Below, one piece after another: positions 12,488 to 12,834 of a DNA stretch of 38,183 nt; the stretch's first letter is position 1, and the number at the start of each line of letters is the position of its first letter. The stretch lies in IMG/VR virus record IMGVR_UViG_2713896906_000008; one strand, given 5' to 3'. Origin of the DNA: a virus. Taxonomy: Duplodnaviria > Heunggongvirae > Uroviricota > Caudoviricetes. Below the pieces are notes generated by a model that saw only the letters and a program-made list of their open reading frames with translations, was not told the DNA's origin and did no database searches. The position numbers were made by a program, and so were the translations under genes.

Positions 12488-12595
12488 TTATCTTTTTGAT
12501 TTCTTCTTCGTATCATCGTGATCGAATACTTGGCGGGTAGGCGGCTTGCTGGGTGGTGGCGGCGGCGGTAAATTAGATTTCTCATTTTTGCTCAT
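12488..12595 (-). CDS. polyproline mini-ORF 3 (35 aa, MSKNEKSNLPPPPPPSKPPTRQVFDHDDTKKKSKR)
   Basis: ATG preceded by AGGAAA about 10 nt upstream; overlaps mini-ORF 2 stop by 14 nt. Confidence 0.45.
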   Translation of the reverse strand: MSKNEKSNLPPPPPPSKPPTRQVFDHDDTKKKSKR

Positions 12596-12719
12596 CTTTA
12601 TTTTTCCTATTTTTTGGATCATTGCCATAGCTTTCTCTAACTAACCGAGTGATTGGCGGTTTAGGTGGTGGTGGTGGTGGTGGTGCTTCATTTTTTTTAG
12701 GATTTTTGTGTTCGGTCAT
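12582..12719 (-). CDS. polyproline mini-ORF 2 (45 aa, MTEHKNPKKNEAPPPPPPPKPPITRLVRESYGNDPKNRKNKDEQK)
   Basis: ATG preceded by AAAGGA about 9 nt upstream; the track gives a longer 63-aa form starting 12773 inside mini-ORF 1. Confidence 0.45.
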   Translation of the reverse strand: MTEHKNPKKNEAPPPPPPPKPPITRLVRESYGNDPKNRKNKDEQK

Positions 12720-12834
12720 TTTTATCGTCCTTTCTGTCTCTTCGTAGTTGCCTTGCTTTTGAATCATCTTCAATAACGATCCTTCTTGCAGGTGGAGTAG
12801 GCCGAGGAGGTGGTGGCGGTAACGGTTTGGTCAT
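12697..12834 (-). CDS. polyproline mini-ORF 1 (45 aa, MTKPLPPPPPRPTPPARRIVIEDDSKARQLRRDRKDDKNDRTQKS)
   Basis: ATG preceded by AGGAGA 6 nt upstream; start overlaps stop of the 216-aa membrane protein gene (TAATG). Confidence 0.45.
   Translation of the reverse strand: MTKPLPPPPPRPTPPARRIVIEDDSKARQLRRDRKDDKNDRTQKS

Follow-up and report, generated by a model that had tools for sequence, protein, structure and literature searches.

A cassette of P2-like prophages in which a small membrane protein gene is coupled to three proline-rich mini-genes that resemble its own family's tail

The classic precedent for two products from alternative starts within one membrane protein gene is lambda S105/S107. 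Bacterial gasdermins, from work of Johnson et al. in 2022, are said to be pore-formers with C-terminal autoinhibitory peptides. SLATT proteins are predicted to be pore-forming toxins (10.64898/2026.04.29.721553). The gpA-gpQ hotspot of P2-like phages was defined by Rousset et al. (PMC9122126), and when eight cargos of unknown function from P4 hotspots were chosen at random for a 2026 preprint, six of them protected against phages (10.64898/2026.02.27.708500). The cassette considered here is within the gpA-gpQ hotspot of a P2-like prophage and was analysed in the window, meaning the whole 38,183-nt stretch of Caudoviricetes DNA of IMG/VR record IMGVR_UViG_2713896906_000008. On its minus strand the gene for a 216-amino-acid (aa) membrane protein is followed by three overlapping proline-rich mini open reading frames (mini-ORFs A, B and C; coordinates of all features are in Table 1). 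There is high confidence, on comparison of related sequences, that these genes are genuine and encode small proteins (35-45 aa) that are basic, disordered and rich in proline, and equally that they belong with the membrane protein. By homology they are copies, split off and present three times, of the C-terminal tail module in the membrane protein's own family. The overall reading to which this leads is of a membrane-perturbing effector of phage exclusion or abortive infection (Abi) with tail-derived regulatory peptides as its partners, and its probability is put at about one half.

Each mini-ORF starts with ATG preceded by a Shine-Dalgarno (SD) sequence, AGGAGA at 12845-12840 for A, AAAGGA at 12733-12728 for B and AGGAAA at 12608-12603 for C. 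The three hexamers are 6-9 nt from their start codons and the energies of their duplexes with the anti-SD are −7.4, −5.3 and −4.2 kcal/mol respectively. The ATG of A shares bases with the TAA of the 216-aa gene (TAATG). Mini-ORF B is in the +1 frame with respect to A, which it overlaps by 23 nt, and C is in the +1 frame with respect to B with an overlap of 14 nt. All three, each with its SD sequence and ATG, have a run of 5-7 prolines. The 38-kb window has six matches to (CCN)5 in three clusters, all within the mini-ORFs, when 0.03 is expected from shuffles. The original prediction, made from the window's letters, had pointed to three overlapping mini-ORFs, and its coordinates, lengths, SD sequences and polyproline runs agree exactly with those found. 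RefSeq/PGAP annotation has B only, with an N-terminal extension to 60/61 aa, and leaves A and C unannotated (the exact sequences of A and C were not found in a 15-billion-protein collection). The proline tract of B is encoded by (CCA)7 at 12664-12685, a slipping trinucleotide repeat. Near-identical alleles of B from E. coli, Salmonella and Klebsiella have 4, 5, 6, 7, 8, 9 or 11 prolines, and in five of the six complete E. coli genomes with the cassette the tract is shorter than the window's by one proline.

The first set of homologues consisted of relatives of the membrane protein down to 53% identity, for whose loci the DNA was fetched. With the extension to relatives at 23-31% identity the comparison set came to about 30 related loci. 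One to three Pro-rich ORFs follow the membrane gene homologue in every intact locus examined. Loci of the first set are from E. coli-like, Enterobacter, Cedecea and Pantoea genomes and, in metagenomes, from elements of the P2 and P4 types. The distant loci are from Vibrio, Marinomonas, Massilia, Zhongshania, Pseudomonadales metagenome-assembled genomes (MAGs), Alteromonadales-like MAGs and further viral contigs; where intact, they have one or two Pro-rich ORFs that lie at the gene's 3′ end or beyond it (for example MSQKPPPPPPPPTRNVRGNVRPPPPPPPPR in L030-L034). Three classes are orthologous across genera. Class A is ...PP-ARR-IVIEDDSK, with orthologues in Enterobacter, Cedecea, Pantoea and metagenomic loci, class B is ...KPPITRLVRESYG and class C is ...PPTRQxFDHDDTKKK. 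It is the B class which is the archetype common to distant relatives.

While every copy has an ATG (rarely GTG) and an SD sequence, the architecture in which the copies are set varies. Their frames relative to the membrane gene are 2,0,1 in the window and 2,1,2 in L007, the ORF junctions may be a 23-nt overlap, ATGA or gaps of 5-6 nt, and in L009 (3239-3475) B and C are fused in one frame. The number of peptides is two in L023 (A and C only) and one in L026/L027, as it is in those P2-like phages that have the cassette between V and S. A stop-start overlap of the membrane gene with A (TAATG, TGATG or TAGTG) is present in all the enterobacterial loci, and the modules of L036, L043 and L045 all have ATG and SD. 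At 44 starts the median SD energy is −5.95 kcal/mol, with 84% at or below −4 versus 13% for the local background (Mann-Whitney p 1e-21, a value which overstates independence because the loci are phylogenetically related).

The median ratio of nonsynonymous to synonymous substitution rates (dN/dS, by the NG86 method) is 0.30 for A, 0.35 for B and 0.20 for C, which is the most conserved class. The corresponding ratios of proportions of differences (pN/pS), 0.50, 0.49 and 0.37, are the lowest of the six frames and codon position 3 is the most variable, with the codon alignments, being built on the proposed frames, favouring those frames. Synonymous differences are near saturation (pS about 0.65). 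The ORFs are undisrupted in all intact loci, that of L019 included, and the Pro codons are not kept at the DNA level from locus to locus. In this comparison it is the reading frames that are conserved and not the DNA. The original prediction had taken the triplication to mean selection on translation, and the comparison supports this: over about 30 loci the frames, starts and SD sequences are kept, although the codons used for Pro, the extent of overlap and the frame of one ORF relative to the next all vary.

Two further candidate explanations for the array were rejected. The Tandem Repeats Finder program (TRF) finds only the (GGT)7 tract and the Pro codons are not conserved, which disposes of a DNA-level repeat. 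Programmed frameshifting to yield one polypeptide was dismissed on the grounds that frames differ by locus, that there are intergenic gaps and that each copy has its own ATG and SD. Both a fixed frameshift and a DNA repeat are ruled out because the architecture varies, yet each copy keeps its ATG and SD. On the plus strand there are two antisense ORFs of 32 aa each, at 12546..12644 and 12649..12747, with poly-glycine and then a hydrophobic stretch. They were rejected as real genes, with pN/pS worse than for the sense frames. The antisense frames are open because the sense strand is purine/C-rich and poor in T-rich codons, and these ORFs are probably by-products. A 479-aa 'cluster mate' of B (P0168) is unrelated to it, a clustering artefact.

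The relationship of the mini-genes to the membrane protein's tail is evident from longer members of the family. Many are of 250-310 aa and consist of the shared core up to the motif DLDxSSPRK, a poorly conserved helical linker and, at the C-terminus, the same module that the mini-ORFs specify. An extension of at least 40 aa is present in 55 of the 81 representatives with DLDxSSPRK, and most of these extensions end in the same Pro-rich module (for example P0022 ...MSDKKPPPPPPQAPARPIARVFNDE, P0038 ...KKNPPPPPPAPEPPEIRPLVEDD and P0190 ...MTEENSVKTPPPPPPPPPTRLIREDV). At the start of the module an internal in-frame ATG with a strong SD (−5.6 to −11.4 kcal/mol) is present in seven of the eight fused genes for which DNA was available, which implies that a free peptide is also made there. 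A free peptide is probably a universal product of the family, and the fused genes look like nested-gene intermediates. In L028, L038, L042 and L046-L049 a fused tail with internal SD and ATG is accompanied by one further mini-ORF. The only clearly degraded copy seen is that of L039 (Salinivibrio sharmensis, 2492-3188), where the membrane gene is interrupted; its downstream part is still open and has DLDVSSPRK, linker, internal SD and ATG, and polyproline module.

For comparison of peptides with each other, 56 free peptides and 34 tails were anchored at a conserved Arg (or Gln) before a hydrophobic pair. The fraction with Pro at −3, −6 and −9 is 0.96, 0.86 and 0.98 for the free peptides, and 0.85, 0.91 and 0.91 for the tails. 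Pro is low at −5 and −8, and its fraction there is 0.00 in the ten peptides that lack polyproline (decayed forms of the tract include TPPTPPTPP, PPQPPQPPQ and PQPPKPPVPPP). What is conserved is PxxPxxPxxR with a stretch of two or three hydrophobic residues behind it, after which the sequence turns acidic. As prolines with a periodicity of three constitute one face of a polyproline-II (PPII) helix, a protein-binding surface is implied, and PxxPxxPxxR-phi-phi (phi for hydrophobic) would be such a face plus a short strand. Uninterrupted polyproline seems to be common but dispensable; runs of at least four are present in 47 of 57 free peptides versus 16 of 55 fused tails. All of the peptides are basic (net +2 to +7, pI 9.2-11), with 20-37% Pro, and are disordered and very hydrophilic, without signal or membrane segment. 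Each nevertheless has 2-8 Asp/Glu residues, and the acidic motifs IEDD, ESY and FDHDD are conserved.

The conserved start of the membrane protein itself is probably Met9, at 13460, which gives 208 aa (homologues begin MKxxKALEFYEKLYF). Neither candidate start, 13484 or 13460, has an SD sequence (+0.4 and +0.5 kcal/mol), and the same is so for the membrane gene in most loci (median +0.2 kcal/mol). An extended −10-like motif, TGnTATGTT, ends 6 nt before the first ATG of the gene, and a leaderless transcript is conceivable. The AlphaFold2 (AF2) model of the window protein has four long helices and three hydrophobic segments (pLDDT, the predicted local distance difference test score, is 82). The size of its family by profile is 959 representative clusters at E≤1e-3 and 273 at E≤1e-10. 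Searches of Pfam, NCBIfam and PDB revealed no relative of the membrane protein, and the 959 clusters are without name or Pfam domain. With the window proteins, profile searches of Pfam, NCBIfam, PADLOC and PHROGs gave phrog_36961 ('unknown function') as the sole match. Neither ORF B nor the family profile had a match in PDB sequence searches, and no solved or viral predicted structure resembling the models was found.

A possible site for the peptides is indicated by the AF2 model of a natural fusion, P0045, for which there were 42 aligned homologues. Its pLDDT is 92-98 for the core, 47-61 for the linker and 96 for the block PPTPSQPPAR of the tail. Just two strands of more than one residue are present in it, EYEG (87-90, in FWGNEYEGMP) and RKVI of the tail (280-283). 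FWGNEYEGMP is the most conserved motif of the family. The equivalent in the window is IWGNEFKYCP, and in the A1 set its W92, N94, F96, Y98, C99 and P100 are invariant. There is moderate confidence from the model, read as having the tail beside the FWGN strand, that the tail binds through docking of its PPII helix and through beta-augmentation, on the same face as the N-terminal FYEKLYF helix, and we infer that the IWGNEFKYCP strand is the putative docking site for the window's proline-rich peptides. Covariation of docking strand with peptide anchor, judged by eye, had no clear pattern, the lineages being few.

The other prominent motif is DLDAASPRK in the window, residues 190-198 (about 12893-12919, minus strand), directly after the third hydrophobic helix. 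DLDxSSPRK is nearly invariant across the family and is missing from subfamilies that end right after that helix. In both AF2 models it contacts the short loop (KNTS) between the first two hydrophobic helices. Caspase-type cleavage at DLD|A was entertained and dropped, as the sole protease-linked subfamily (L030) is without the motif.

The sites at which the cassette is found are those of mobile cargo. In the window it is between gpQ and cos and its GC content is 36-41%, versus 52-60% for the flanking late genes. The order on the minus strand is Q, terminator, membrane gene, A, B, C and a second terminator, followed by cos, and the cassette thus forms a unit of its own, inserted in the Q-cos interval of a P2-like prophage. 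(Hairpins are also visible at the equivalent position in the sequences of related loci.) The cos assignment is from a 97-98% match to annotated cos regions of P2-like phages such as Cartapus, where it is given as 'putative cos site'. In L005 and L010 the cassette adjoins psu in P4-like satellites, which is the P4 int-psu hotspot, in other P2-like phages it is between baseplate gene V and tail gene S, and in L030, a distant P2-like contig, it is after gpD. In bacterial genomes its neighbours include an Mrr-like gene, an AAA_21 ATPase, a WYL regulator and transposases. Across cos in the window, in the same hotspot, is a PADLOC candidate system, PDC-M03 (10324-11936, plus strand), whose PDC-M03A/B are a HipA_C kinase-like gene (303 aa) and an overlapping HIRAN-domain gene (234 aa), with E of 4e-36 each. 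The cassette is low-GC mobile cargo of P2/P4 defence hotspots. Neither PMC9122126 nor 10.64898/2026.02.27.708500 has it in its set of tested systems, and the new P4-hotspot systems of the latter preprint are different genes.

Directly upstream of the L030 cassette, on the same strand, are genes for a ThsB-type TIR protein and a caspase-family protein (Peptidase_C14), the whole being at 2591-4652. After this pair come a 174-aa relative of the membrane protein and then the double-polyproline mini-ORF, MSQKPPPPPPPPTRNVRGNVRPPPPPPPPR. The set may be a larger, four-gene system.

The proposed function of the cassette carries low to moderate confidence and can be taken in steps. The peptides would dock by PxxPxxPxxR-phi-phi on the FWGNxFKY strand of the membrane protein's cytoplasmic face. 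As the membrane gene is without an SD sequence and those of the peptide genes are strong, the membrane protein is expected to be scarce and the peptides in excess. The membrane protein would perturb membranes as the effector of a module for phage exclusion or abortive infection. The peptides would be its regulatory partners, most simply by keeping it inactive for as long as they are continuously synthesized. Peptide supply would need ongoing, and probably elongation factor P (EF-P)-assisted, translation. With 5-12 prolines only a few codons after strong SD sequences, and PPP being an established EF-P-dependent stall motif (PMC4176338), the supply is expected to depend on EF-P and to be sensitive to loss of translation capacity; EF-P-dependent synthesis of the peptides is plausible. 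Retention of the three paralogue classes across genera points to non-redundant roles for them rather than simple dosage.

A more specific form of this proposal would have a pore-former held shut by short-lived polyproline peptides, whose synthesis would require initiation driven by a strong SD sequence and then EF-P-assisted passage through 5-12 prolines, so that elongation capacity is the signal monitored. If an infecting phage took over host translation or shut it down, or if it sequestered the basic peptides, they would vanish and the effector would kill the cell. The nested internal start and the triplicated mini-genes would then be two ways of keeping free peptide in excess. This gating by translation is an unlikely elaboration.

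Several points weigh against the proposal as a whole. The defence role is drawn from context. The cassette is rare, being present in 6 of 5426 complete E. coli genomes, and no homologue of it was found in 50,697 deposited phage genomes. The resemblance of the family to SLATT proteins is weak: no Pfam SLATT family was matched by any of 130 members at E≤0.01, and a single member has a weak match to NCBIfam SLATT_5 (E 0.047). PADLOC matches are likewise weak and confined to about 15-20 of the 130 members, with 15 to PycTM (best 2.8e-6), four to RTasSLATT and several to CBASS 2TM, the window membrane protein itself having no PADLOC hit. Nor does the cassette have a nucleotide-generating or nucleotide-sensing domain (SMODS, SLOG, reverse transcriptase or cNMP-binding), the neighbours of the membrane gene being the Pro-rich mini-ORFs only. 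The docking comes from the model of one homologue, P0045, which is about 28% identical to the window protein, and it was read from pLDDT and DSSP with the strand pairing assumed, as these are the only multi-residue strands. Moreover, in fused homologues the tail comes after the third hydrophobic helix, which would put it on the opposite side from the docking strand unless the amphipathic linker helix, of 32 residues, passes back through the membrane. With peptide genes separate, as in the window, this topology problem would not arise; its peptides, having no signal sequence, are made in the cytoplasm and so are expected on the side of the docking face. The sign of the regulation, inhibitor as against activator or assembly factor, is a guess, and the relatedness of loci and the frame-based alignments mentioned above temper the statistics for the mini-ORFs.

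That sign is where the main rival departs. In it the peptides are obligatory co-subunits or assembly cores, a PPII rod required for activity, as in the PRAD-WAT complex of acetylcholinesterase, where the helices of several subunits surround such a rod. Keeping of each of the A, B and C classes across genera would suit non-redundant parts of, for example, a hetero-oligomer, the invariant FYEKLYF helix and FWGNxFKY strand could make the aromatic cradle typical of PPII binders, and there are weak Pfam matches to PRIMA1, a proline-rich membrane anchor. However, excess of peptides over a poorly translated membrane protein is better suited to a titrating inhibitor and some relatives have a single peptide, so that co-subunits are the less favoured choice, if the one most deserving of attention among the alternatives. 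Alternatively the cassette, in a permissive site, may not be anti-phage and instead have a role in lysogenic conversion or membrane physiology (envelope stress, adhesion, host interaction), or be anti-defence or pro-phage. It has no match to any validated defence family and is absent from isolated phage genomes, the hotspots hold other cargo also, and part of the cargo of unknown function was unprotective in the preprint (10.64898/2026.02.27.708500). Its recurrence in four variable P2/P4 sites and beside TIR, caspase, Mrr, AAA_21 and WYL genes, the presence of PDC-M03 next to it in the window, and the large share of such cargo that does protect when tested, make this rather unlikely.

The remaining alternatives put the emphasis on the tracts or on the peptides alone, and like the non-defence one each is less likely than a regulated effector. 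If polyproline stalling were what is selected, as a readout of EF-P or elongation capacity that acts in cis on the mRNA through its stability, ribosome queuing or coupling, the products would be incidental. Five to twelve consecutive prolines do begin 4-12 codons after strong SD sequences, free copies favour uninterrupted polyproline to the extent given above, and tract length is polymorphic from P4 to P11 where PPP already is an EF-P stall motif (PMC4176338). Yet the ORFs are the last before the terminator and cos, so that nothing downstream is there to be a target, purifying selection acts on what follows the tract, where the motifs specific to each class persist from genus to genus, lineages without polyproline keep just the period-3 prolines, and the module also occurs as a covalent tail. 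A translation-status sensor of this type, the main idea of the original prediction, is improbable. Its suggestion of EF-P-dependent regulatory leaders is not supported, since the operon ends with these ORFs and there is no gene to regulate; nor is the stall motif the conserved element, as the post-tract motifs are conserved and in 10 peptides polyproline decays to PxxPxxPxxR. The useful part of the EF-P idea can plausibly be kept as a property of the protein partner. Toxic peptides which block the ribosome exit tunnel or DnaK in the style of oncocin, Bac7 or apidaecin, with the membrane protein serving as immunity, anchor or export component, are more improbable again. Their basic charge, proline content and disorder would be appropriate, and PRPTPP-ARRI of A is like the pyrrhocoricin PRPTPPRPIY and the oncocin PRPRPPRRIY. 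The Arg of PRP, though, becomes Q, P or K in orthologues, the conserved IEDD, ESY and FDHDD are unlike known proline-rich antimicrobial peptides, the module is found tethered to the membrane protein and is placed on that protein by AF2, and by sequence no solved complex is matched. Of the antimicrobial likeness originally proposed, the cationic, Pro-rich character stands and the PRP/Arg signature does not, and the resemblance is superficial. That the mini-ORFs are functionless, as decaying remnants of a fused tail or a simple G/T-rich DNA repeat, is scarcely credible. The antisense frames are also largely open and the (CCA)n tract slips, but there is an ATG and SD at every copy, pS is saturated at about 0.65 with pN/pS of 0.37-0.50, no intact locus has a broken ORF, and as DNA the Pro codons vary.

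Features of the window outside the cassette include, before PDC-M03, a gene for an Rv2179c-like 3′-5′ exoribonuclease (9754-10308, plus strand; Pfam E 5e-50). Upstream of replication gene A is an ORF (5938-6855, plus strand) with Dam-like motifs (ILKWAGNK ... DPPY), which looks like a putative DNA adenine methyltransferase.

Table 1. Features of the cassette and its borders in the window
Feature	Coordinates	Strand	Details
Portal gene Q	14582..13545	minus	annotation from related E. coli records
Terminator-like hairpin after Q	13518..13535	minus	separates late operon from cassette
Membrane protein gene	13484..12834	minus	216-aa ORF
IWGNEFKYCP codons (residues 91-100)	13214-13185	minus	conserved strand after second hydrophobic helix
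Mini-ORF A	12834..12697	minus	45 aa, MTKPLPPPPPRPTPPARRIVIEDDSKARQLRRDRKDDKNDRTQKS, class 'RRIVIEDDSK'
Mini-ORF B	12719..12582	minus	45 aa, MTEHKNPKKNEAPPPPPPPKPPITRLVRESYGNDPKNRKNKDEQK, class 'TRLVRESYG'
Mini-ORF C	12595..12488	minus	35 aa, MSKNEKSNLPPPPPPSKPPTRQVFDHDDTKKKSKR, class 'TRQxFDHDDTKKK'
Terminator-like hairpin closing cassette	12454..12423	minus	13-bp stem, 7 GC pairs
P2-type cos site	about 12300-12342		97-98% match to annotated P2-like cos regions; strandless

The cassette adds to the cargo of the best-validated hotspots a widespread uncharacterised family, its 959 representative clusters having no Pfam, NCBIfam, PDB or PADLOC assignment. Annotation pipelines largely miss its essential partner genes, which are of 35-45 aa, with PGAP calling one of the three and that from the wrong start. 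These genes provide a clear example of a protein tail that was split off, multiplied and kept as micro-genes, for which the nested internal start is a plausible intermediate. Both the short linear motif, PxxPxxPxxR-phi-phi, and the predicted docking strand are defined and mutable. Polyproline tracts as long as these are rare in bacteria and are EF-P-dependent, and the cassette is a natural system for asking whether elongation capacity serves as an infection signal. Should the anti-phage role be true, defence-finder tools would need models for micro-ORF partners. Should gating by translation be true as well, the cassette would represent a novel type of immune module carried by phages, with a new sensing principle.

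Among described systems the SLATT/2TM effectors of CBASS, Pycsar (PycTM) and DRT10 are like the family in being small and all-helical, with a hydrophobic helical hairpin and mobile defence contexts, and in having the partner gene coupled by overlapping stop and start codons. Unlike them, the family has a third hydrophobic helix and the conserved DLDxSSPRK and lacks a Pfam SLATT match, and its partner is a proline-rich peptide derived, it would seem, from its own tail instead of a nucleotide cyclase, reverse transcriptase or sensor domain. With toxin-antitoxin and Abi modules that have a labile protein antitoxin the cassette shares a compact, translationally coupled and co-transcribed pair (there is a single terminator, after C) on a prophage, with the small partner predicted to be in excess over a protein that is poorly translated and may be toxic, and direct binding predicted by the model. 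It differs from toxin-antitoxin pairs in that the part of 'antitoxin' would fall to a trio of disordered polyproline paralogues of 35-45 aa, whose genes are downstream and which have no DNA-binding domain for autoregulation.

The dual starts of holin-antiholin genes have a counterpart in the fused homologues, where the internal SD and ATG (7/8) would lead to a second product in the same frame that has a segment in common with the membrane protein and is a possible modulator of it. Here, though, the nested product is the soluble C-terminal tail and not a near-full-length membrane isoform, the window has three separate genes, and P2-like phages already have lysis genes of their own. Bacterial gasdermins are similar to the extent that a short C-terminal segment is predicted to fold back on the effector core and, in L030, that a caspase-family gene is directly upstream. 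The differences are that there is no similarity of sequence or fold, the core is helical and already hydrophobic, mostly there is no linked protease and in the window the tail is expressed in trans. The mini-ORF products are, like the proline-rich antimicrobial peptides oncocin, pyrrhocoricin, Bac7 and apidaecin, cationic, 20-37% Pro and unstructured, and that of A is locally like them at PRPxPP-xRRI. They differ from them as phage or bacterial products that are intracellular, have conserved acidic motifs and are linked to a membrane protein, to which they may even be fused, with PRP/Arg not conserved. EF-P-dependent polyproline proteins and leaders, of which CadC and the mgtP-type proline-codon leaders are examples, also have stall motifs of PPP or longer near the start codon. 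In contrast to leaders, the mini-ORFs are upstream of no regulated gene, the sequence outside the tract is conserved and only the prolines of the PPII face are indispensable.

Neither the searchable literature nor any profile library gave a description of the family or of micro-genes for polyproline partners, and nothing relevant was found in the literature on proline-rich small proteins of prophages or defence systems. A hotspot effector with a small regulator, toxin-antitoxin pairing and the nested logic of antiholins are all known. What is unprecedented is a PPII peptide partner apparently derived from the effector family's own tail, split off and triplicated.

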